Below the pieces are notes generated by a model, which ran no database searches, was not told the DNA's origin, and saw only the letters and a list, made by a program, of their open reading frames with translations. Of a stretch of 64,000 nt of DNA, positions 4,122 through 37,610 are shown in pieces. The DNA comes from Bacilli bacterium (GTDB lineage: Bacteria > Bacillota_I > Bacilli_A > RF39 > UBA660). How positions within the stretch are numbered: position 1 is the stretch's first letter; every line of letters starts with the position of its first letter. The stretch is taken from contig JAGAYJ010000015.1 of the NCBI GenBank assembly GCA_017940575.1, positions 17,083-81,082 on the forward strand. Reading direction: 5' to 3'. The position numbers were made by a program, and so were the translations under genes.

Positions 4122-4200
4122 ACGAAAACTCCTTTCACCATATTGTATGTAAACTAATTATAATTGTGAAAAATAGTCATATTATTTATTAGGTGATAGT

Positions 4201-4968
4201 GTGTATAAATTTTTTAAAAAAATAGGACTTGTTTTATTAGTAATAGGAAGTTTTATTTATACTGAAAAAGCAGCACTTGTAGTAAAAGAATATGATAAAT
4301 TAATGATTGAACTAAAAGAAAAAGCCTCTACTCTTAATTCTAATGTAAAAGAAGCAATTATTAAAGATAATAATATTATACCTGGTATTAGTGGTAGAAT
4401 AGTCAATATAGATAAGTCTTATAGTAAAATGAGAGAGTATTCTAAATTTGATTTAGATTTAATTGTGTATAACAAAACTTATCCAAAAAAAAGATTAATA
4501 GATAATAAAGATAAATTTATTATAAAGACTCAAAAAGAAGAAGTGGCTTTAATTATTAAAATAGTGGGAATAATAAATAATGAAATATTAGATATAGGTG
4601 ATAATGTAAGTTTTTATGCTGATAGTGCAACGATAAAGAATAATAAAGAGTTAATTAATAAATTATCAAAAAGACATACTATATTGAGCAATAATAATAA
4701 ATTTTTAAAACAAATAATTGGTCAAAAAAATGGATTTTGTCTAACTGAAGAATATGATAAAGAAATTTTAAAAAAGTGTTTTAAAAATAGTGATTTTACA
4801 ATTGTGCCAAGTATAGTTTTAAAAGATAATAATATGTATAAATTGAATAAAAATCTTGATAAAGGAGTTATTATATTATCTACAATGAACAATTATAAAA
4901 CAGTCTTAAAGTATATTAAAAATAAGGGATATAAAATTGTATCAATAGATGAATTGTTGAGTGAATAG
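4201..4968 (+). CDS. Hypothetical membrane-anchored protein (N-terminal TM helix; C-terminus ends GYKIVSIDELL as in polysaccharide-deacetylase-like proteins but NodB catalytic motifs not seen)
   Basis: ORF with N-terminal hydrophobic helix; no catalytic motifs recognised. Confidence 0.35.
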   Translation: MYKFFKKIGLVLLVIGSFIYTEKAALVVKEYDKLMIELKEKASTLNSNVKEAIIKDNNIIPGISGRIVNIDKSYSKMREYSKFDLDLIVYNKTYPKKRLIDNKDKFIIKTQKEEVALIIKIVGIINNEILDIGDNVSFYADSATIKNNKELINKLSKRHTILSNNNKFLKQIIGQKNGFCLTEEYDKEILKKCFKNSDFTIVPSIVLKDNNMYKLNKNLDKGVIILSTMNNYKTVLKYIKNKGYKIVSIDELLSE

Positions 4969-9729: not shown

Positions 9730-10153
9730 AAAAGCTTACTTTGATTACGAAATTTTAGAAGAAATAGAAACAGGTATAGTACTTAAAGGAACTGAAATAA
9801 AATCGATAAGAGAAGGTAAAGCTAATTTAAGAGACAGTTATGCGATCATTAGAAATAATGAAGTGTATATTTTAAATATGCATATAAGTCAGTACGCTCA
9901 AGGAAATATATTTAATCATGAAGAGACTAGAACAAGAAAACTTTTACTTCATAAAAGAGAAATATTAAAATTAAGAGATAGTTTGGAACTAAAAGGTTTA
10001 ACCTTAGTTCCCTTGAAACTATACTTTAAAGGTAATCATGCTAAAATACTACTTGGCCTTGCTCGTGGTAAAAAGCTTTATGATAAAAGAGAATCAATTA
10101 AGAAAAGAGATAACTTAATTGAAATAAAAAAAGAGTTAAAAAAATTATATTGA
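9713..10153 (+). CDS. smpB: SsrA-binding protein SmpB
   Basis: KAYFDYEILEEIETGIVLKGTEIKSIR... canonical SmpB; overlaps rnr stop by 17 nt; immediately upstream of ssrA. Confidence 0.9.
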   Translation: MEIKNKKAYFDYEILEEIETGIVLKGTEIKSIREGKANLRDSYAIIRNNEVYILNMHISQYAQGNIFNHEETRTRKLLLHKREILKLRDSLELKGLTLVPLKLYFKGNHAKILLGLARGKKLYDKRESIKKRDNLIEIKKELKKLY

Positions 10154-10190: not shown

Positions 10191-10568
10191 GGGGCTGTCT
10201 TGGTTTCGACGGGTATATTTAGCTATAGATTGCAGGTCGTAGGTATACGTTAAATACAAAACAAAATAAACGCAAACAAAGTTAAAAATGCATTAGCATC
10301 AGTATTCAGAAGTAATGCTGTTGCCTTTGCCTAATCGAATTTAGGTGATGCAACTCTAATTATTTCTTTTCCTACGGGAAATTCTTAGGGTTCGATTTAG
10401 TAGGATATATTATTTAATTTCTTTGCTTAAATAATGAATTTTAAAAAGATTACTAAATAAGAGTTGTCAGCTACTAACTTATTTAGGACACTAATTAGTT
10501 GACTAAGCTTGTAGATATTTATAGTGTGGTGTATTCGGACACGAGTTCAATTCTCGTCAGCTCCACCA
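10191..10568 (+). ncRNA. ssrA: tmRNA (SsrA). The tag ORF ends ...NAVAFA-stop at 10332-10334
   Basis: tRNA-like 5' end GGGGCTGTCTTGGTTTCGACGGG, 3' end GGACACGAGTTCAATTCTCGTCAGCTCCACCA with T-arm and CCA; follows smpB; internal tag reading frame ending in a hydrophobic AFA-stop. Confidence 0.9.
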
Positions 10569-10610
10569 TTAAAGAATCCAGTTGAACTTTGGTTCAATTT
10601 ACTAATAAAT

Positions 10611-10639
10611 ATCAATTCTAGAAATGGAATTGATTTTTT
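10611..10639 (+). terminator. Intrinsic terminator downstream of ssrA
   Basis: atcaattctagaaatggaattgat hairpin followed by TTTTTT. Confidence 0.7.
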
Positions 10640-10640
10640 G

Positions 10641-10873
10641 TTGTGTAAAAGAAAGGGATGATTTAAAGCACGAGAATTATCAACTTAAATATAAAAATGA
10701 AGAATTAGAGGAACAACATAAACAAATTGAAGCTAATAATCGAAGATTTAATTTATTTAATAAAAGAGAAATGGAAAAAAGCAACTAAACATATTAATGC
10801 TGAAATGGATGAAGCTACTGAAGAATTTTATCAAACAAAAAAGGGCAAAAAAAAAGACGATTACGGAATGTAA
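10641..10873 (+). pseudogene. Frameshifted coding remnant (charged coiled-coil-like fragments ...KYKNEELEEQHKQIEANNRRF... / ...HINAEMDEATEEFYQTKKGKKKDDYGM)
   Basis: Two consecutive short reading frames with coding-like composition and no start or RBS, directly after ssrA. Confidence 0.25.
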
Positions 10874-10884
10874 TTGTCTTAATT

Positions 10885-11391
10885 TTATCCTTTTCTAGTA
10901 TTCATTGAAACAAAATCTTGAGCGATTTTTTGATATTTATTGTATGTTTCTCTGACGTTTTGTGTTTGTACTATTTCTTTTGTAAATTCATTAAATGAAT
11001 CTTTGTTTTGAACTAATTCAATTAAAAATCTCTTTTTTTCTTCATCGCTTATTTCGTTTAACTTTTCAAGATAATTTGATAGTGCTGTAGTCCAAAATGG
11101 GTCTACACTTGTTATAAAACTAATAATATCTGATAAAGAAATTTCAAATCTCTTGTCCTCAATTTTATACTCTCTACCTGTTTTTTCTTTTAATAACTCT
11201 TCTAATGCAATTCTTGTAGAATTATTATTTACATCCTTGCTTGCATTTAAATAGTTCTTAATAATATGATCGATTTGTTCCTCTTTAGAATTAAAACAAT
11301 AATTTTTCTTTAATTCTTCATACTTTGCCTCTAATTCTTCTACAGATAAGTTTTCAAACCATTTTTTTGCTACATTTGGTGCAAATGCCAT
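10885..11391 (-). CDS. Hypothetical protein (acidic, helical; no recognisable domain)
   Basis: ORF with AAAGGAG RBS 10 nt upstream of the second ATG (MAFAPNVAKKW...). Confidence 0.4.
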   Translation of the reverse strand: MAFAPNVAKKWFENLSVEELEAKYEELKKNYCFNSKEEQIDHIIKNYLNASKDVNNNSTRIALEELLKEKTGREYKIEDKRFEISLSDIISFITSVDPFWTTALSNYLEKLNEISDEEKKRFLIELVQNKDSFNEFTKEIVQTQNVRETYNKYQKIAQDFVSMNTRKG

Positions 11392-11536
11392 AAATATCAT
11401 ACTCCTTTCTTAATTATTATAACATGATTTTTGAAAAAATATATTCATTTTGTGAAACTAATGCTATAATAAAAATAGAACTGATATTTATTAGTTTGTT
11501 CTTTATAGATATAAGTGTTCAAAATAGGCTCTTGTA

Positions 11537-11585
11537 TCGCACCAATAATGAATTATTCGAACTATAAGATAGTTCGTTTTTTATT
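11537..11585 (+). repeat. 49-nt direct repeat, copy 1 (module B: tcgcaccaatRatgaattattcgaactataagatagttcgttttttatt), contains a terminator hairpin
   Basis: 48/49 identical to 13959-14007; cgaactat..atagttcg stem + T-run. Confidence 0.8.
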
Positions 11586-11798
11586 GTAAAATTTATTCAC
11601 AATAAAATACATGGTATATTTGGTGATAAAGATGATAAATATAAAGACATGGCTGATAATTTATTTATAAATGGTATTATGGATGAAAAAGAATATACTA
11701 GTGTAATTAATAAAAAAGATAAAAATCGTGATGGCTTTGAACGATAGTATAGGAGAATTGCCTAAAATATGATAAAATTATATACGAGGTGTTTTACT

Positions 11799-12917
11799 AT
11801 GAAATATGATAAAAACGAAGAAAAAGAAAAATTAGAACAAGTTAATGAAGAATTAGTAAGATTTATGAGAGATTATCCGAAAGATAAATTATCTCTTACT
11901 GCAATAGGTAATTCAATAAGTGATGGATTTTCTATGTCAGAGCCTGGAAGGTTATTATTAGATAGAAATTTAGGTTTAATTGACTTTGGAAAAAGCAAAG
12001 GATTAGATGTTCAAACATATCAATTATCAAGAAGCGAAAATAATAATGCATTAGCAGTATCTAACTGGATTATACAAAATTGTTGTGAAAAGGACTCACA
12101 TAATTGGAATATAGCCGATTATAGAAGAGCTATAGAAAATGGAAGTCCACTTTTAACTGAAGAAGAAATCAATGAATTCTTTGCAGGTGGTTCTGATAAA
12201 AAAATACAAGATGTTATATTTGACACAAATAAATCAAATGCAAATATAGTAATTCTAAATTTAGGAACAGGTTCATTTTTAGATGTTGTAACTAGACATG
12301 GTTCTTTATCTATTCCAAATATTTTTGGCTCAGTTGATAGAGATATATATGGTATAAATGCCATACTTGAATTAATACAAAATAATAATAGAAATAATAA
12401 TTCAAATACTCAAATATATTTATGTGGGGCTCCTAGAATAGTTAATACAGCACTAACTGATATGTTTATGAATTCTAAAATAAAAAAGGTTGGAGCAGCA
12501 TTTGCTAATGTTACATATGTACCATCATTTCCTAGACAAGCATTTTATAAAACACCTAGTGGAAGTATTATTCCAGATCCACATTATAATCAAGCAGAAT
12601 ATTATCATTTTCTAGCAGAAATAGAAAACAAAATAATTGATAATTATTTCATTAGAGATTTAATGATTGATTTAGACAGAATATTATTCCAAATGAGTAA
12701 TGATAATGATGTAAATGGTACAAATTATTCTAAAAATGATATAAAAGATGTTATTGATGAAATTGCTAAAAAATATGAAAGTAAAACAGGGGATTATAAC
12801 TATTTCATTGATTTTATAAAAACTTATTTAAAAGGTAGATATCCATTTGATTTTTATAGAGGCTCAACTGACAACAATATAGCAAAAGATTTGAATGATA
12901 TGAAAAGACATAAATAA
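11799..12917 (+). CDS. SGNH/GDSL-like hydrolase (divergent, block I GNSISDG)
   Basis: Block I TAIGNSISDGFS (Ser nucleophile, Asn in place of Asp), Gly/Asn blocks, block V DPHYNQAEY (D-x-H); GAGGTG RBS. Confidence 0.5.
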   Translation: MKYDKNEEKEKLEQVNEELVRFMRDYPKDKLSLTAIGNSISDGFSMSEPGRLLLDRNLGLIDFGKSKGLDVQTYQLSRSENNNALAVSNWIIQNCCEKDSHNWNIADYRRAIENGSPLLTEEEINEFFAGGSDKKIQDVIFDTNKSNANIVILNLGTGSFLDVVTRHGSLSIPNIFGSVDRDIYGINAILELIQNNNRNNNSNTQIYLCGAPRIVNTALTDMFMNSKIKKVGAAFANVTYVPSFPRQAFYKTPSGSIIPDPHYNQAEYYHFLAEIENKIIDNYFIRDLMIDLDRILFQMSNDNDVNGTNYSKNDIKDVIDEIAKKYESKTGDYNYFIDFIKTYLKGRYPFDFYRGSTDNNIAKDLNDMKRHK

Positions 12918-12929
12918 AGGGTGATGTAT

Positions 12930-13817
12930 ATGGAAAATATTAATCTATTTTGTGGAATCTCATCTTTAGGAATGCCGTTTCCTAAAGAAAACAAGGAACA
13001 TATAGGTTATTATGATATTATATTAAGTAGATTACAAAATGATGGTTTTAATGTATCAGGCTTTAATATGTCTAAATTAAATAAAAATCATACATGGGAC
13101 TTGGAAAAAGCATTAAATGAAAATGCTACTTTGGCTTCAATAAAAAATATTCAATTACAGTCAATAGATTCATTAAGGAATGCCAATATATTGTTTAAGT
13201 TAGTTGTACCTAAAAAGTTTAAAAATACAATAATCATTAATTCAAGCGACCATAAAAATACACTAAAGAATATATATATTAATTCTAGTAATCCTATTTT
13301 TCTATATCATGGTGGCCCAAATGATTTTTTTACATATATACAAGCAGGCCCCGTTGAGTTAACGGATAGAAAAGTTAGAGAAAAACTACCAAAAGATATT
13401 AAGCCTTTGATAGAACAATGTATTAGTAATGTAGAAAAAAATTGGCAATTACTTCATCAATTAAATCCAAATACTAAAGTGTATGCAATGAGTTACTATT
13501 ATTCTCCATTATATGATAAGATTCAAAAACTAATATTCCTTCAAGAAAAAATGAAAAATAAAAACACGAAATATGTTAATAAATTTATGGAAGTAATAAA
13601 TATATATAACAGAATGCTACAAGAGGCAGCAGAAAAATATGATTATGTTGAATATTGCGATATTACGTTTTTAAAGGATTATTGTGCACCTATGGATTTC
13701 CATCCTAATACAATTGGTAATAAATTAATTGCTGATATGCTTTTAAAGAAAATAGAATTACAGATTGGTAAAGAGAATCAAACAACAAATAGTAATCAAT
13801 CGTTTAGAACAAAATAG
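12930..13817 (+). CDS. SGNH/GDSL-like hydrolase (second, divergent)
   Basis: Block I FCGISSLG, block III GGPNDF, block V DFHPNTIGNKLIA (the DxxH...G..A pattern typical of SGNH); 4-nt gap from previous gene. Confidence 0.5.
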   Translation: MENINLFCGISSLGMPFPKENKEHIGYYDIILSRLQNDGFNVSGFNMSKLNKNHTWDLEKALNENATLASIKNIQLQSIDSLRNANILFKLVVPKKFKNTIIINSSDHKNTLKNIYINSSNPIFLYHGGPNDFFTYIQAGPVELTDRKVREKLPKDIKPLIEQCISNVEKNWQLLHQLNPNTKVYAMSYYYSPLYDKIQKLIFLQEKMKNKNTKYVNKFMEVINIYNRMLQEAAEKYDYVEYCDITFLKDYCAPMDFHPNTIGNKLIADMLLKKIELQIGKENQTTNSNQSFRTK

Positions 13818-13900
13818 TTAATACTTCGTTTGAAGTATTTTCTTTTTTTAGAAAAATTATCAAAGTACTTTTAATTTCTAAAATTTATGGTAAAATGAAT

Positions 13901-14007
13901 ATAGTGATTGATATCAATCAATCGTCTTTAGCGGGTGAGTTGTAAACCACTTCGTCGTTCGCACCAATGATGAATTATTCGAACTATAAGATAGTTCGTT
14001 TTTTATT
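13901..14007 (+). repeat. Modular repeat element R1 = module A + module B. Module A is the palindrome TGATTGATATCAATCA plus a conserved 52-nt core; module B is the 49-nt repeat with terminator
   Basis: Module A about 50/52 identical to 16103-16156; module B 48/49 identical to 11537-11585; preceded by extended -10 TGGTAAAAT. Confidence 0.8.
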
Positions 14008-14138
14008 ACCTGGTTTGTGGAAAAAATTATATTTAGACATCTATTTTTTTTATGGTTTCATATTAATATGCAGAAAATTCTGATATAATAATTATAAGTT
14101 AAACTTTAAATTATTCAACAAGAAAGGTTGTGCTTAAA

Positions 14139-14846
14139 GTGAATACAAATAAAAAGATTTTAGTTAGTGATTATGATCAAACATTTTATTTAAATGATGA
14201 AGATATAGAAATCAATAAAGAAGCAGTAGATAGATTTAGAAAAGAAGGTAATATATTTGTTATTGCAACAGGTAGAAGTTATTTTGATTTTCATAATAAA
14301 GTGAATATGTATAATTTTGATTATGACTATGTAATTATTAATCATGGTGCAACATTATTAGATAAAAACGATAATGTTTTTGCAAATTTTTCTATAAATG
14401 CTGATGTTATAAATAATATTAAAGAAGATTTGCAATTAGAAAAATCAATAAAAGGTTTTTGCTGTAGTAAATTAGAAAGCAGAGTTGATTTTGAACATAA
14501 TGATTTAACAAAGATAAATGTTAAATATAATACTAAAGAAGAGGCAATGACTATTAATGAAATAATAAATAATAAGTATTCTGATGATGTTAATTCTTAT
14601 TATGTTACTGAAAATTCATTAGAAATAATTTCAAATAAAACAAATAAATCAAATGCCATAAATTTATTGATAGAGAGATTAAATATATTACATGAAAATG
14701 TCTATACAATTGGTGATGGTTATAGCGATATAGAAATGATTAAAGATTTTAATGGATATTCAATGGTTAATTCAGTAGATGAATTAAAGCAAGTAGCTAT
14801 AAAGGAATATGAAAGTGTTTCTAATTTAATAGATGAAATAATATAG
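14139..14846 (+). CDS. Cof-type HAD-IIB family phosphatase
   Basis: N-terminal ILVSDYDQTF (DxD motif I), VIATGRS motif II, C-terminal TIGDGYSDIEM motif; GTG start with AAAGG RBS. Confidence 0.7.
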   Translation: MNTNKKILVSDYDQTFYLNDEDIEINKEAVDRFRKEGNIFVIATGRSYFDFHNKVNMYNFDYDYVIINHGATLLDKNDNVFANFSINADVINNIKEDLQLEKSIKGFCCSKLESRVDFEHNDLTKINVKYNTKEEAMTINEIINNKYSDDVNSYYVTENSLEIISNKTNKSNAINLLIERLNILHENVYTIGDGYSDIEMIKDFNGYSMVNSVDELKQVAIKEYESVSNLIDEII

Positions 14847-14855
14847 GTGGTAGTC

Positions 14856-16046
14856 ATGAAAAATAAAAAAATAGAAGGAAATATAATTATTGCAATAAAT
14901 GCAATGAAAAAAATAATGGTATTATTTTTAGGACCATTTTTAACTGCTTATTTTATTAAAACTTCACAAGAAAGTATTGTTGATTTATCTATATATTATA
15001 TATTTTCATATATACTACTTGCTATTGGTAGCTTTATAGTAGCAAGTATAATAAAGAATAAATTTAGAATAGGAATGTTTAGAATTGGTGTAATATTAAA
15101 TTTCTTTTATATTTTAACAATTATTATTCTAAAAGAAAATATAATAAATCATTTAGCATTAATATCAATTTTATATGGCATATCATCTAGTGTATATTGG
15201 TTTCCATATAATTTATTTGTAATTAATAAAATTGATAATGATTATAGAACTGAATATACAGTAAAATCTCAGATAGTTACATCAATTATTGGTGTATTAT
15301 GTCCTATATTGTTAGGCTCAATAATAACTGCTACTAACTATGAACTAACTGCAATTATTATTTTATTTATATCTATGATTCAAATAGTTCTTTCATTTTT
15401 GCTAACACCAGAAAAAGATAATAATCTATCAAGTTTTAATTTAAAAAACACGTGGAAGAAGTTAAAAAACAATGAACAAATAAGAAAAATGTCTATCGTA
15501 GAATTTTTTATTGGTATGAATGTAAGTGATGGAGCTTTAGAAGTATTAATGACAATATTAATATTTAATTCATTCAAAACAAATTTAAATCTTGGAATAA
15601 TTACATCAATCACAACATTACTATCAATATTATGTGTTCATTTATATGGAAAATTTTATAAATACAAAGATGATAAAAGAATTATAAATATATCAAGTAT
15701 TATTCCTGTTTTATCAGTTTTATTATTACTTATTTATAAAAATAATATTACTGTTATAATTTATAATGTATGTTATGTTATTTTTACATCATTACTTACA
15801 TTAACAAGAGAAATAAGATTATTTAATATATCAGATAGTTCTATTGTAGATAAAAATAATCAGAGTGAATTTTTTGCTATCAGAGAAGGAATATTAAATT
15901 GTGGCAGAATTGTAGGATATTTAATGCTCTTATTAGCAGGTATGAGTGGCAATCAAATTGTTTTAAATATAGTTATGATATTACTAACATTGTCAATATT
16001 AGTGACAGGTTTAAACATTAAAAAAATAGAAAAATTTGAAAAATAA
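14856..16046 (+). CDS. Polytopic membrane transporter (about 12 TM; MFS-like)
   Basis: About 12 hydrophobic segments with short loops; 9-nt gap after the HAD gene (operon); AGGTGG RBS. Confidence 0.45.
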   Translation: MKNKKIEGNIIIAINAMKKIMVLFLGPFLTAYFIKTSQESIVDLSIYYIFSYILLAIGSFIVASIIKNKFRIGMFRIGVILNFFYILTIIILKENIINHLALISILYGISSSVYWFPYNLFVINKIDNDYRTEYTVKSQIVTSIIGVLCPILLGSIITATNYELTAIIILFISMIQIVLSFLLTPEKDNNLSSFNLKNTWKKLKNNEQIRKMSIVEFFIGMNVSDGALEVLMTILIFNSFKTNLNLGIITSITTLLSILCVHLYGKFYKYKDDKRIINISSIIPVLSVLLLLIYKNNITVIIYNVCYVIFTSLLTLTREIRLFNISDSSIVDKNNQSEFFAIREGILNCGRIVGYLMLLLAGMSGNQIVLNIVMILLTLSILVTGLNIKKIEKFEK

Positions 16047-16102
16047 TTTGTGTATAAGTAATAATTTATAGAATTATTTATAAAAATGGTGTATATTTAT
16101 AT

Positions 16103-16210
16103 TAGTGATTGATATTAATCAATCGTCTTTAGCGGGTGAGTTGTAAACACTTCGTCATCTCCACCATATTTGATAATTAAAGCAATTGATTATTTGATTG
16201 CTTTTTATTT
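16103..16210 (+). repeat. Modular repeat element R2 = module A (palindrome TGATTGATATTAATCA plus conserved core) fused to a different terminator; contains ACTTCGTCATCTCCACCA, which resembles the ssrA 3' end
   Basis: Module A identity to R1; 15/18 match of 16149-16166 to the tmRNA 3' terminus TTCTCGTCAGCTCCACCA; hairpin gcaattgattatttgattgc + T-run. Confidence 0.75.
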
Positions 16211-16246
16211 ATATTAAGTGTTATACTCTTTACTAAGAGGTGAGTT

Positions 16247-16762
16247 ATGAATATACCTATTAAATATAATGATGAAATAGATGAATTTACTCTTGATTTA
16301 ACGCTTCAAATGAGACTTGAAAAATATATAAAAAAACACTTTGATGTTGGATATGCAATATCAAATATGTGTAATATATACCTACTTGGAGGAGCAATTC
16401 GTGATTTAATTGAAGCCAAGATTCCCAAAGATTTAGACTTTGTAATTGTGGGACGTGATAATATAGATTTTATAAATCTTTTATTTAAAAAACTAAATAT
16501 TAAATATACATATAATAAATTAGGCGGCTTTAAATTTAATTATAATAATACTGAGGTAGATTTATGGCTTACAGATGATTTGTTTTCAGCTATTCAATAT
16601 AATGTTGATGGATTATTTTTTAACTTAAAAGATAATTCACTTATATCATTAACTTTTGATGATTTTATAAAAAATGGACTTAAAGAAGTAAATACTGAAA
16701 ATAACATTGAAAATGGAAGAGTAAAAAAATTAATTAATTTTGATAAAAGCTTTAGGATATAA
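16247..16762 (+). CDS. Minimal nucleotidyltransferase with CCA-adding / polyA-polymerase head-domain motif (171 aa, no body domain)
   Basis: IYLLGGAIRDLIEAKIPKDLDFVIVG matches the GGxVRD...DxD signature of the PolyA_pol/CCA head domain; downstream TEVDLW corresponds to the E-V-T-T-F-R region. Confidence 0.55.
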   Translation: MNIPIKYNDEIDEFTLDLTLQMRLEKYIKKHFDVGYAISNMCNIYLLGGAIRDLIEAKIPKDLDFVIVGRDNIDFINLLFKKLNIKYTYNKLGGFKFNYNNTEVDLWLTDDLFSAIQYNVDGLFFNLKDNSLISLTFDDFIKNGLKEVNTENNIENGRVKKLINFDKSFRI

Positions 16763-16873
16763 TAATATGAAAGAAATGTTTAAAAGTGCTGTTCATTTAA
16801 TTTTAATTAAAGATGATATAATACTTGTAAAAAAATAAAGTATATTATATAATAACTGACTGAGTGTGATGGT

Positions 16874-17338
16874 ATGGAAAAATATGTATTAAGTAATATG
16901 AAGGATAAAAATTTTTCAAAAGCGGTAAGTGAAATATATTTATTAACTGATTATAATAAATTACAATATCCTGATTATTATAAATGGTTTTATCAAAAGA
17001 ATATTCCAAGAATTTTAAATGGTGAAGGTGAAGCAATATTTTATCTTGATGGATTTAATGTGGTTGGACTTTCTATGATGAAAAAAGATGAACTTGAGGA
17101 AAAAATATGTACATTACTTATAAATGAAGAATATAGAAAATTAGGTTATTCTAAACAAATATTAGAAGATTCATTTGAATATCTAGGAACTGATAAACCT
17201 TTAATTACAATACCTGAAAATAGACTTGATGAATTTAAAAGTATAATAACTGCATATGATTGGATTGAATCAGAAATAATTACTGATTATTATTCACCTG
17301 AGGTTATTTTTAATCAAAAAATTAAAAGCTTAAAATAG
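16874..17338 (+). CDS. GNAT family N-acetyltransferase
   Basis: ICTLLINEEYRKLGYSKQILE acetyl-CoA binding motif A (R/Q-x-x-G-x-G/A). Confidence 0.6.
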   Translation: MEKYVLSNMKDKNFSKAVSEIYLLTDYNKLQYPDYYKWFYQKNIPRILNGEGEAIFYLDGFNVVGLSMMKKDELEEKICTLLINEEYRKLGYSKQILEDSFEYLGTDKPLITIPENRLDEFKSIITAYDWIESEIITDYYSPEVIFNQKIKSLK

Positions 17339-35684: not shown

Positions 35685-36050
35685 ATGGATTGTGTATTTT
35701 GTAAAATAGTAGAAGGAACACTACCTTCAAAAAAAGTATATGAAGATGATTTAATAATTGGTATTATGGATATTGATCCATTTTGTGATGGACATGTTCT
35801 ACTTATTCCAAAAAAACACTATACTGATATGATGGAGTTAGATAGTGATTTATTAAAACATATTAATGATGTTGCTAAAGACTTAACTAAAAAACTTATG
35901 ACTAAATTAGATAAAAAAAGTATGACTGTAAGTTATAATTATGGCGATAAACAAGTTGTTAAACATTTTCACTTACATTTACTTCCTAATATGGATGATA
36001 AACCAACTCATACAGTAGATGAGATGTATGAGAGTATTATGAATAACTAA
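35685..36050 (+). CDS. HIT family (histidine triad) hydrolase
   Basis: CVFCKI N-terminal zinc motif, GHVLLIPKKH, HFHLHLLP histidine triad. Confidence 0.8.
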   Translation: MDCVFCKIVEGTLPSKKVYEDDLIIGIMDIDPFCDGHVLLIPKKHYTDMMELDSDLLKHINDVAKDLTKKLMTKLDKKSMTVSYNYGDKQVVKHFHLHLLPNMDDKPTHTVDEMYESIMNN

Positions 36051-36189
36051 CTTGTAATAATTAATTTTTTATGATATTATGTATTTAGATGAAGGAAGCT
36101 TCATAAAATAAAAAAGGAACACTTAATATGCAGAGTTGAGTGTTGCCTAAAATGTGGTTTCACCTAACTATGAGTTAGGTGTTTTTCTT

Positions 36190-36273
36190 TTATATAAATA
36201 TTATGATTAGTAATATTATAAGTAAAAGAATGATAAGAAGTAGTATGAAGATTAATGCATCTTTCTTACTCAT
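36190..36273 (-). CDS. Small hydrophobic membrane peptide (27 aa) MSKKDALIFILLLIILLLIILLIIIFI; RBS sequestered in a perfect hairpin
   Basis: Not in ORF track; GGAGGTG RBS 8 nt upstream; the SD lies inside the inverted repeat CCTCCAAgaTTGGAGG (36281-36296); paralog of the 7289-7366 peptide; terminator cacctaactatgagttaggtg shared with the upstream HIT gene. Confidence 0.4.
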   Translation of the reverse strand: MSKKDALIFILLLIILLLIILLIIIFI

Positions 36274-36407
36274 AATATCACCTCCAATCTTGGAGGTAAC
36301 ACCCAACTATTAAGTATTCCTAAACATATTATAGCAAAAATATGTTCGCAATACAAGAAATGATTAATTATTTCATTTTAATTGCATACATTTAACTAGG
36401 TGATTAA

Positions 36408-37610
36408 ATGAAAAAGTTTTTAATTATATTGATATGTCTTTTTATTCCAATAAATATCTATGCATCAGATACAGGTCCTATTGAAGGAAACGAATTAGAG
36501 GTAATAGGTGAGGTAAAAGAAGATAAAGGACTTGCTGGAAATGCAAAGTCAGCTATATTAATAGATGCATCAACTGGAGAGGTTTTATTTGAAAAAAATT
36601 CACATGAAAAATTAGCACCTGCATCAATGACTAAAATGATGAGTATGTTACTTATATTAGAAGCAATAGAGAATAAAGTAATTAATTGGGATGATATTAT
36701 AACCGTTAGTGAAAATGCATCAGGTATGGGTGGATCTCAAATACTCCTCGAGACTAATGAGAAGATGAGTGTACATGATTTATTTAAAGGAGTAGCTGTA
36801 GCTTCAGGTAATGATGCAGTTGTCGCACTAGCAGAGGCTACATATGGAACTGTTGATAACTTTGTGTCGGAGATGAATAAAAAAGCAAAAAAACTAGGAC
36901 TTAAAGATACTAATTTTAAAAATGTACATGGTCTTGATGTTGAGAATCATTATTCATCTAGTTATGATATGGCTTTAATTGCTAAAGAACTAGCTCGTCA
37001 TGAAAAAGTGTTTGAGTTTACTTCAATTTATGAAGATTACTTAAGAAAAGGAACTCCTCGTGAGTTTTGGTTAACTAATACAAATAAACTTGTTAGATTC
37101 TATACAGGAGTTGATGGTTTAAAAACAGGTTATACACCTGAGGCTGGATACTGCCTAACTGCAACTATAAAAAAAGATGATATGAGACTTATATCGGTAG
37201 TAATGGGTGAACCTTCCAGTACTGTTAGAAATAAAGAAACAACAGAACTTTTAAACTATGGATTTAGTCAATATAAAACAACTAATGTAGCGCGCAAAGG
37301 TCAAGTCATAACAGAAATAGAACTTCCAAAATCAGAAAATATAAAAATAGGCATTGTACCATATGATAATGTAAATATCTTAACTAAAAAAAATGAAAAG
37401 ATTGGTAATATTACATATAAAGCAAAAGTTGATAAAATAAACTTAAATACAAAAGTAAATGATAAAGTAGGAACACTTTTTATATATGAGAATAATAAAC
37501 TTATAAAAGAGACACCTTTAACTATTAAAGATGAATTAAAAAAAGCATCATTCTTAACTTTATATAAAAGATATTTATCTAACTTAATAACAGGCAATAT
37601 TAAATACTAA
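36408..37610 (+). CDS. D-alanyl-D-alanine carboxypeptidase (PBP5 family; DacB/DacF-like)
   Basis: Signal peptide, SxxK (ASMTKMM), SGN (ASGND), KTG (KTGYT) motifs, C-terminal PBP5 domain. Confidence 0.85.
   Translation: MKKFLIILICLFIPINIYASDTGPIEGNELEVIGEVKEDKGLAGNAKSAILIDASTGEVLFEKNSHEKLAPASMTKMMSMLLILEAIENKVINWDDIITVSENASGMGGSQILLETNEKMSVHDLFKGVAVASGNDAVVALAEATYGTVDNFVSEMNKKAKKLGLKDTNFKNVHGLDVENHYSSSYDMALIAKELARHEKVFEFTSIYEDYLRKGTPREFWLTNTNKLVRFYTGVDGLKTGYTPEAGYCLTATIKKDDMRLISVVMGEPSSTVRNKETTELLNYGFSQYKTTNVARKGQVITEIELPKSENIKIGIVPYDNVNILTKKNEKIGNITYKAKVDKINLNTKVNDKVGTLFIYENNKLIKETPLTIKDELKKASFLTLYKRYLSNLITGNIKY

Follow-up and report, generated by a model that had tools for sequence, protein, structure and literature searches.

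When two near-identical sequence modules stand in front of two unlike operons of one genome, the question arises whether they control these operons or are there for another reason. The locus considered here lies in a stretch of 64,000 nucleotides from a Bacilli bacterium of the RF39 lineage (GenBank assembly GCA_017940575.1, contig JAGAYJ010000015.1, positions 17,083 to 81,082), which as a whole is called the window below. An inspection of its letters (the sequence-only reading) had pointed to two repeats, R1 and R2, each with a palindrome, a conserved core and an intrinsic terminator, and had taken them for either a repressor-controlled promoter with an attenuator or riboswitch, or a multi-copy small RNA. 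The observation is largely correct, the attenuator or riboswitch reading is wrong, and the small-RNA alternative is possible but secondary. In our view, R1, R2 and a third copy, R0, are probably the junctions of a tandem, or 'accretion', array of small, decayed serine-recombinase integrative elements behind the gene for transfer-messenger RNA (tmRNA), and the repeated module, module A, is the right-end attachment module of such elements.

Where, then, does the repeated module end, and what lies on its two sides? Further copies of module A, for which the sequence-only reading had proposed a search, do exist: two scans with the core, one of genomes and one of metagenomes, yielded 14 true copies, told apart from chance matches by composition and all situated on contigs with 22-31% G+C of uncultured 'Bacilli' from rumen and gut. 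With the units added by protein-guided look-ups, the census comprises 24 related units at 17 metagenomic or genomic loci (numbered with an L below); a scan of IMG/VR viral contigs with a 16-mer gave three chance matches only, and BLAST of the unit against plasmids and phages found nothing that matched. At least six sequence types are distinguished among the units (A, A2, B, C, C2 and D, R0 being of type B), which share one design, namely, from 5' to 3', a -10 box, a 5' hairpin, a long 3' hairpin and a tail of 3-6 nt ending in ...CACCA (CACTA in two cases), with 3' hairpin sequences that are unrelated between the types. Homology among the 24 units stops at ...CAC(C/T)A, beyond which sequences and genes are unlike at all copies, and upstream the stop codons of at least 10 unrelated genes are found at a distance of about 40-90 nt. 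Because both flanks differ between copies, the unit can be regarded as a portable module at the 3' end of many gene sets. The terminators that follow the units (T1, T2 and others) are non-homologous between copies; the terminator, which had been counted as part of the module, belongs to the next DNA segment. Nor is the 16-nt palindrome the conserved box that it had been taken for, being degenerate in L004, L014, L017 and L018; what is conserved across the 24 units is a hairpin, GAUUGAU-NNNN-AUCAAUC, itself degenerate in several copies.

The same break point is found after the CCA of tmRNA and of at least four tRNA genes. Specifically, a recurrent left flank, the F flank (approximately TTGACGAATCTGTTCGAACTATTCGAAC..., with a further hairpin and T-run behind it), comes after the CCA of tmRNA (L003, L014), tRNA-Thr(cgt) (L004, L010), tRNA-Thr(ggt) (L035), tRNA-Leu (L028) and another tRNA (L034), and also follows A or C units (L010, L012, L028, L031); T1 of R0 and R1, as well as the flank of the tmRNA gene in the window, are diverged versions of it. 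By inspection, the last 17 nt of the unit (CTTC(G/T)TC......CACCA) look like the acceptor/T-stem strand of the tRNA and tmRNA targets, which is rich in pyrimidines. Dyad symmetry extends over the junction: the T-loop AGTTCGA is separated by 31 nt from TCGAACT of the F flank, with the centre on CCA, and where an A unit meets an F flank, TTCGTC and GACGAA are 12 nt apart. Such dyads would fit a site for a dimeric recombinase centred near the CCA. The units themselves are called by neither ARAGORN nor the Rfam tRNA models, and what they share with tRNA is limited to a stem resembling the acceptor, the ...NCCA tail and GAGTTGTAAACC, a weak likeness of a T-loop, which by inspection lies 4 nt further out than in tRNAs. 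A displaced 3' fragment of tmRNA was also considered as the source of the unit and rejected: only the last 13 nt of R2 match, the alignment of the body with the tmRNA 3' domain is unconvincing, and only GAGTT and CACCA are common.

Several neighbourhoods bear on the choice of anchor. After an orthologous M18 peptidase gene, L004 and L010 carry tRNA-Thr(cgt) (4193-4269 and 1705-1781, respectively) and L028 a variant A unit (9745-9814), the F flank coming next in all three, so that unit and tRNA gene appear interchangeable as anchors. A units (L001; L018 3398-3583) and a D unit (L028, about 12560-12890) stand directly after tRNA-synthetase genes with T-box leaders. In L012 (564-1028 and 1092-2573), SmpB has no tmRNA gene after it, none being detected in 14 kb by ARAGORN or Rfam, and the cassette array lies on the strand opposite to SmpB and points towards it, which suggests an inversion or rearrangement at this array.

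In the window, the order at 10569-16210 is tmRNA, cassette 1, R0, cassette 2, R1, cassette 3, R2, all three repeats being located a short way 3' of the tmRNA gene, which is itself preceded by the genes for RNase R and SmpB. The features are as follows.

10191..10568, plus strand: tmRNA gene (ssrA; Rfam RF00023, 165.7 bits; ARAGORN), the 3' end of which, ...CTCCACCA, is the anchor and attB-like site of the array
10569..10640, plus strand: left-end flank of the first cassette (diverged F flank), with about 13 nt, the hairpin GTTGAACTTTGGTTCAA, and a second hairpin with a T-run
10669..10872, plus strand: 3' remnant, frameshifted, of a gene for a serine recombinase with a C-terminal tail of the P0160 type (tblastn and translation)
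11462..11585, plus strand: unit R0 (B type), with extended -10 box TGcTATAAT at 11462-11470 and RNA-like body at 11477-11544, ending in GCACCA
11545-11585, plus strand: T1 terminator at R0, part of the next cassette
11583..11747, plus strand: what is left, after 5' truncation, of a recombinase module's 3' end ('X96' tail, ...KFIHNKIHGIFGDKDDKYKDMADNLFINGIMDEKEYTSVINKKDKNRDGFER and stop)
11769..13817, plus strand: cargo genes of cassette 2, for a protein of 382 aa (function unknown) and one of 298 aa (GDSL-like match, weak)
13888..14007, plus strand: unit R1 (A type), with TGgTAAAAT at 13888-13896 and body at 13903-13966, ending in TTCGCACCA
13967-14007, plus strand: T1 terminator at R1, which is the left end of the next cassette
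14081-14089, plus strand: extended -10 box TGATATAAT of the own promoter of cassette 3, after the R1 terminator (read from the sequence)
14130..16046, plus strand: cargo of cassette 3, a Cof-type HAD hydrolase (Pfam Hydrolase_3, 2.9e-29) and an MFS transporter (MFS_1, 5e-13)
16092..16210, plus strand: unit R2 (A type with a tmRNA-like 3' strand), with -10 box TATATT at 16092-16097 and body at 16104-16166, ending in CATCTCCACCA
to 16210, plus strand: T2 hairpin and T-run at R2
16219-16227: extended -10 box TGTTATACT of the operon after R2, after the terminator (read from the sequence)

How are the three repeats related to each other? R1 and R2 have in common a block of 55-56 nt with 96-98% identity, and a search of the window for the 27-nt core ATCGTCTTTAGCGGGTGAGTTGTAAAC, with up to 3 mismatches allowed, finds exactly two copies where none is expected. 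As the sequence-only reading had noticed, each copy is followed by a hairpin and T-run, the hairpins being unlike (R1, 13967-14007; R2, to 16210), and the R1 hairpin is among the 7 sites found by a terminator scan of the window, where 0.7 were expected; a -10 hexamer does stand upstream of both copies, its distance being fixed (TAnnnT, 6 nt, AG) and not variable. The family had been thought to have two copies; these are where they were said to be, and a third, diverged copy, R0 (11477-11585), had been overlooked. The 3' 49 nt of R0, from TCGCACCAAT to the terminator, are 98% identical to the 3' part of R1, and its 5' part is homologous to module A and has diverged from it. Hence the three copies form a mosaic: R0 consists of X and T1, R1 of A and T1, and R2 of A and T2. 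The whole of R0 has 92% identity with L003 2874-2970. The last 13 nt of R2 equal the tmRNA 3' end of L003 and L014, which belong to related species, and CTCCACCA together with the start of T2 matches the tmRNA flank of the conspecific contig L025 at 19 of 22 positions, which makes R2 a candidate for the junction at the distal end of the array (attR).

A cassette has moved together with its unit. This cassette, K, is present in L004 (4265-5483) and in L014 (1644-422) with 96% identity over 1,223 nt; its left-hand limit is the CACCA of tRNA-Thr in the former and of tmRNA in the latter, and its right-hand limit, in both, is CACCATTAT of its own A unit, beyond which the DNA differs. Since the left neighbours, tRNA-Thr and tmRNA, are alike only in CACCA(TT), homologous recombination cannot explain this move and was rejected as its sole cause. 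In the species of the window, the conspecific contigs L025-L027 encode an identical SmpB protein and their DNA is 98.4% identical to the window as far as the final A of the tmRNA CCA (base 10568) and unrelated from 10569 on. Synteny also breaks at the CACCA of a unit between L001 and L018, where the unit follows a T-box-regulated tRNA-synthetase gene, and between L008 and L015. Three features expected of an accretion array are present here: it starts at the 3' end of an RNA gene, in the window as in L003, L014, L004, L010, L028 and L035; its segments have att-type bounds, and the same segment, cassette K, stands at different anchors; and a site-specific recombinase gene occupies one end of the intact members, which are found in relatives, the window having remnants only.

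These intact relatives link the units to serine-recombinase genes. Complete elements are found in L031, L035 and L028, with the serine-recombinase gene at the left end, often accompanied by a Mob_Pre relaxase gene, and the unit at the right end. The element in L031 (7409-13843) begins with the F flank behind the CACCA of a C unit and continues with orf90, the recombinase gene (Resolvase, 7e-33; Recombinase, 3e-18), Mob_Pre, three cargo genes and an A unit with its CACCA; a second recombinase/Mob_Pre element lies just upstream and ends in that C unit. The element in L035 extends for about 6.3 kb behind tRNA-Thr(ggt) and ends in unit A2, and that in L028 for 3.5 kb behind tRNA-Leu, with a variant A unit as its end. 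Directly behind the left flank, a gene of the Resolvase+Recombinase(+Zn ribbon) kind is seen in L028, L031 (twice), L034, L035 and L037-39, and every complete element has its serine recombinase at this place (5 of 5 element types); the recombinase family has 1,837 homologues at E<=1e-20, with Resolvase, Recombinase and zinc-ribbon motifs. Recombinase and relaxase without mating-pore genes, the hallmark of an integrative and mobilizable element (IME), occur together only in the relatives L031 and L035 (Mob_Pre PF01076; 6.3-6.4 kb), and in the window cassettes neither was found by Pfam (10.8-30.7 kb), which makes them similar to cis-mobilizable elements (CIMEs). The sequence-only reading had allowed for module A being the terminal repeat of an insertion sequence (IS) or a miniature inverted-repeat transposable element; the end of a mobile element it appears to be, the elements being serine-recombinase elements or cassettes.

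The window retains traces of such genes. The flank at 10569-10640 is organized like the F flanks that follow tmRNA or tRNA in L003, L014, L004, L010 and L028, and cassette 1 behind it holds a recombinase remnant and a 171-aa open reading frame (ORF): in tblastn, P0160 (400 aa, Resolvase domain) matches 10763-10861 with 64% identity over 33 aa, and also 10669-10785. This tail is of another subtype than the fragment at 11583-11747, which belongs to the 'X96' family, confined to this clade, and has DNA copies in L004, L008, L010, L012 and L014. The coiled-coil ORF of L028 (7601-8320) matches the latter fragment with 91% identity over 54 aa (tblastn, E = 1e-26); in L028, the X96 sequence is the C-terminal end of this ORF, 23 nt after the Resolvase+Recombinase ORF, which in turn lies directly behind the tRNA-Leu, the F flank and a small ORF. 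In the X96 ORFs of L010 (1875-2165), L004 (4373-4547) and L014, the orf90 N-terminus, MIKIIKEEIEIDESLV..., is fused to the tail that forms the C-terminus of the recombinase module; these ORFs are products of deletion that have lost the recombinase and still have an open frame.

The growth of the array can then be envisaged as follows. An element would extend from just 3' of one ...CACCA to the next ...CACCA and would comprise a left flank with one or more terminator hairpins, followed in intact relatives by a small ORF, a large serine recombinase and often Mob_Pre, then the cargo, and finally the right-end module, that is, an upstream terminator, the -10 promoter, the 5' hairpin, the long 3' hairpin and the tail ...CACCA, the last 25-30 bp or so of which resemble, as DNA, the 3' terminus of a tRNA or tmRNA gene. 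In the excised element the two ends, joined so that the CACCA of the unit abuts the flank, would make up attP, the CCA end of a tRNA gene, a tmRNA gene or a resident unit would be attB, and the serine recombinase would recombine the two. Because the right end of each element brings along a new look-alike of a tRNA end, the next element could dock there and the array could grow. The mosaic of R0, R1 and R2 would be the expected product of two successive integrations of an attP in which A is joined to T1 into an attB in which X is joined to T2. As the recombinase genes of the window are reduced to 3' remnants, its cassettes would now be non-autonomous, CIME-like.

A number of observations weigh against this scenario. 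The action of the recombinase at these sites is deduced from linkage. In the established model of large serine recombinases, attL and attR are no targets without a directionality factor, so that growth of the array would need the half-site of the unit to act like an attB half-site. Furthermore, a half-site needs about 25 bp and the conserved module, with terminator, promoter and two hairpins, measures about 130 bp; an attachment role thus leaves part of the module unaccounted for. The breakpoints beyond the terminator of the unit, inside the recombinase-tail remnant, vary among loci, indicating that deletions or illegitimate events also shaped the arrays, and the tmRNA-like 3' strand of R2, with CTCC, is a misfit to a single fixed crossover at CCA. 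Pfam detects no intact recombinase, integrase or transposase in the window between 10.8 and 30.7 kb, and tblastn no recombinase catalytic domain anywhere in the window, so that mobility there must be past or supplied in trans. Finally, the activity of the recombinases is uncertain, as many of their genes are split into two called ORFs, one of these genes having an in-frame TAA.

This TAA deserves a description of its own. In L031 (8001-9938), as in P0077, P0078 and P0079, a single in-frame TAA follows codon 388 (...KEYNQ, stop, RKKVEG...) and the frame runs on for about 250 codons; the form of 388 aa represents over 125 member sequences, and in P0085 the downstream part is fused in frame. It could be a fixed nonsense mutation, a site of read-through, or the sign of two products.

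Could the units instead be genes in their own right? On this account, which we consider rather unlikely, they are primarily genes for a multi-copy, trans-acting small RNA, at the 3' ends of which mobile DNA tends to break or integrate as it does at tRNA genes; the account is compatible with the array reading, the difference between the two being the purpose of the conserved 5' two-thirds of the unit. Much in the units does look like a gene. The box TAnnnT, followed by 6 nt and AG and predicted to lie at -12 to -7, is present at this fixed spacing in 23 of the 24 units, with a TG extension in 19, and a T-run is predicted no more than 75 nt away in 19 of the 24, so that most copies have a terminator. 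The fold of two hairpins and a tail is kept in the six types, with z-scores of -2.1 to -4.2, G·U pairs are present, folding is better for the sense than for the antisense strand in 11 of 13 units, and pairing in the 3' hairpin of type A (P2) is kept through one-sided changes in 98% of cells. In addition, a chromosomal small RNA candidate of the same build lies at 36087-36186. However, the covariation test within type A revealed no compensatory double changes, and its shuffle control was not significant; structural support therefore consists in the recurrence of the architecture in six unrelated sequence types. Rfam 15 has no match to the unit, either at the gathering score in the whole window and 9 loci, where only the tmRNA, tRNAs and one T-box were found, or at E<=10 in 13500-16600. 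The search for an antisense target of the unit RNA within its own element (L031) and within the array of the window gave complements of at most 11-12 nt, within the shuffle expectation. The unit moves with cassettes, and its near-invariance between hosts of about 78% core DNA identity is explained equally well by recent transfer. A sigma-70 promoter scan (48 sites, 59 expected) is uninformative because the DNA is AT-rich. A coding reading of the unit was rejected on inspection: GTG ATT GAT ... opens a 13-aa ORF that has no ribosome-binding site (RBS) and loses its frame in L004. The proposal of a multi-copy small RNA thus retains the promoter at fixed spacing, the two-hairpin fold in six types and the terminator in most copies, and lacks compensatory changes within type A.

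Returning to the accretion array, the right-end module could be a functional, element-encoded RNA gene, specifying a CCA-tailed minihelix RNA similar to an acceptor stem, as part of the integration system, which we regard as unlikely. Such an RNA could mark or regulate the attP junction, which its transcript would cross to enter the recombinase operon only when the element is excised or in tandem; it could mimic the tRNA 3' end for a factor of the host or the element; or the serine recombinase family could recognize generic tRNA and tmRNA 3' ends (T-loop and CCA), with many RNA genes and the element's own mimic as landing pads. Any role of the transcript could lie in read-through, when the element is excised or in tandem, that reaches the orf90-recombinase operon, in mimicry of a tRNA end, in insulation, or in nothing at all.

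It is quite improbable that the serine recombinase is incidental and that another machinery acting on hairpin ends or short cores, such as a single-strand transposase of the IS200/IS605 type or an integron-like or tyrosine integrase, inserted the cassettes. Insertion is always 3' of CACCA and in one orientation, with one hairpin about 13 nt inside the left end and another abutting the right end, and identity at the junction is limited to some 5-7 nt, all of which would suit such enzymes. Yet no Y1 transposase, TnpB, IntI or tyrosine integrase was found in the Pfam-scanned loci (among them window 10.8-30.7 kb, L003, L004, L010 and L012) or in precomputed annotations; the left hairpin (TTCGAAC) and the right one (P2 of the unit) are unrelated, unlike the ends of IS200/IS605; and the serine recombinase recurs directly behind the left flank of every complete element type. 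An element of the IS200/IS605 type or a PATE was rejected on the lack of a Y1 (HUH) transposase or TnpB in the scanned loci and on the dissimilarity of the end hairpins, and an integron cassette with its attC site on the lack of a detected tyrosine recombinase and, on inspection, of GTTRRRY/RYYYAAC boxes in the units.

That the repeats are operator, transcribed leader and terminator of a repressor-controlled attenuator or riboswitch for the HAD/MFS and nucleotidyltransferase/GNAT operons, as the order of promoter, structured RNA, intrinsic terminator and operon at R1 and R2 had suggested, is hardly credible, because the unit is linked to the upstream side and the DNA 3' of it, terminator and genes included, differs from copy to copy, the operons have extended -10 boxes of their own after the terminators (14081-14089, 16219-16227), the palindrome is degenerate in the four loci named above, no conserved alternative of terminator and antiterminator is present, and Rfam has no match.

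How does the array compare with known systems? The att sites of large serine recombinases (phiC31, Bxb1, A118, TndX, Ccr) combine minimal identity between partner sites with an imperfect dyad round a short crossover, and the element has its recombinase gene at one of its ends, all of which is seen here; in contrast to them, the target is a generic tRNA or tmRNA 3' end in several RNA genes, and the half-site of the element is embedded in a much larger conserved module that resembles an RNA gene. With integron arrays (attI, then repeats of ORF and attC), the cassettes have in common the small, one-directional cargo, a structured hairpin as end site, the variable sequence within a conserved architecture and the fixed joining point; they differ in that no IntI tyrosine recombinase and no R''/R' (RYYYAAC/GTTRRRY) boxes were found, in that the units have a promoter and G·U-containing stems, in that the cassettes carry promoters and terminators of their own, and in the anchor, a tRNA or tmRNA gene. 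The closest parallels involve accretion. In Dehalococcoides, ssrA islands form tandem arrays directly 3' of the tmRNA gene, with a serine-recombinase (CcrB-like) module next to attL; some lack this module and are read as cis-mobilizable remnants, and extra conserved sequence accompanies each repeat (McMurdie et al. 2011, PMC3146451). The stacking behind tmRNA, the serine-recombinase module at one end, the module-less remnants and the extra conserved sequence at the repeats recur here; in distinction, the common core is only about CACCA at the extreme 3' end, the boundary repeat is a 65-nt promoter-driven two-hairpin unit of several types and contains no ssrA fragment, and the same elements also use several tRNA genes. 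In Firmicutes, accretion of ICEs (integrative and conjugative elements) and IMEs with CIMEs produces tandem arrays of cargo segments parted by att sites (Pavlovic 2004; Bellanger 2011; reviewed in PMC5704250), and mobilizable elements with a relaxase only (MobV/Mob_Pre) are involved (PMC5704250). The tandem, att-separated cargo arrays and the Mob_Pre elements are similar here, whereas the described cases mostly depend on tyrosine integrases with identical core repeats. Serine-recombinase IMEs have been reported to insert mainly within genes (PMC5704250); here, by contrast, insertion occurs at the 3' end of an RNA gene and the att module itself is RNA-gene-like. Different from the described arrays are a putative crossover region at the very CCA end, the use of several tRNA genes along with tmRNA, and an RNA-gene-like boundary module of several types.

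These results remove a false lead, there being no new class of riboswitch or attenuator at this locus, and show in what form a little-known clade, the low-GC, spore-forming, uncultured Bacilli of gut and rumen, keeps its accessory genes packaged and stacked behind tmRNA and tRNA genes. If the linked serine recombinases do act at the CCA end of many RNA genes by way of a portable look-alike, they would constitute an unusual multi-target family of possible use in genome engineering, and an RNA-gene-like att module would be a new design feature of integrative elements. For annotation, the units mark cassette boundaries and help to delimit islands. The cargo of related arrays includes HAD/MFS, Fic, GNAT, nucleotidyltransferase, CHAT and nuclease genes.

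As to the cargo in detail, the window at 16247-17338 and the related arrays L012, L010, L028 and L037 hold many genes that may be of the toxin, defence or nucleotide-modifying kind: a minimal nucleotidyltransferase with a PolyA_pol head and an accompanying GNAT, as well as Fic, NT5C, CHAT, DUF1016/YhcG nuclease, NTP_transf_2 pairs and ADP-ribosylglycohydrolase. The metagenome contig L023 of the same strain ends at position 11537 of the window, where the repeated block of TCGCACCA and T1 begins, consistent with junction repeats confounding assemblies.

Finally, the small RNA candidate at 36087-36186 (plus strand), with its promoter and two hairpins, is convergent with, and abuts, an ORF at 36190-36273 (minus strand) for a hydrophobic peptide of 27 aa (MSKKDALIFILLLIILLLIILLIIIFI and stop) preceded by the RBS GGAGGTG. 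Together, the RNA and the ORF (36087-36273) look like a type I toxin-antitoxin pair; Rfam at E<=10 places 36040-36420 in no family, the one weak match being to BsrG (E = 1.3). Homologues come immediately behind the tmRNA arrays of L014 and L012, and L035 has them at about 18.9 kb; in L012 the 5' half of the RNA is replaced by the degenerate 5' half of an A unit.

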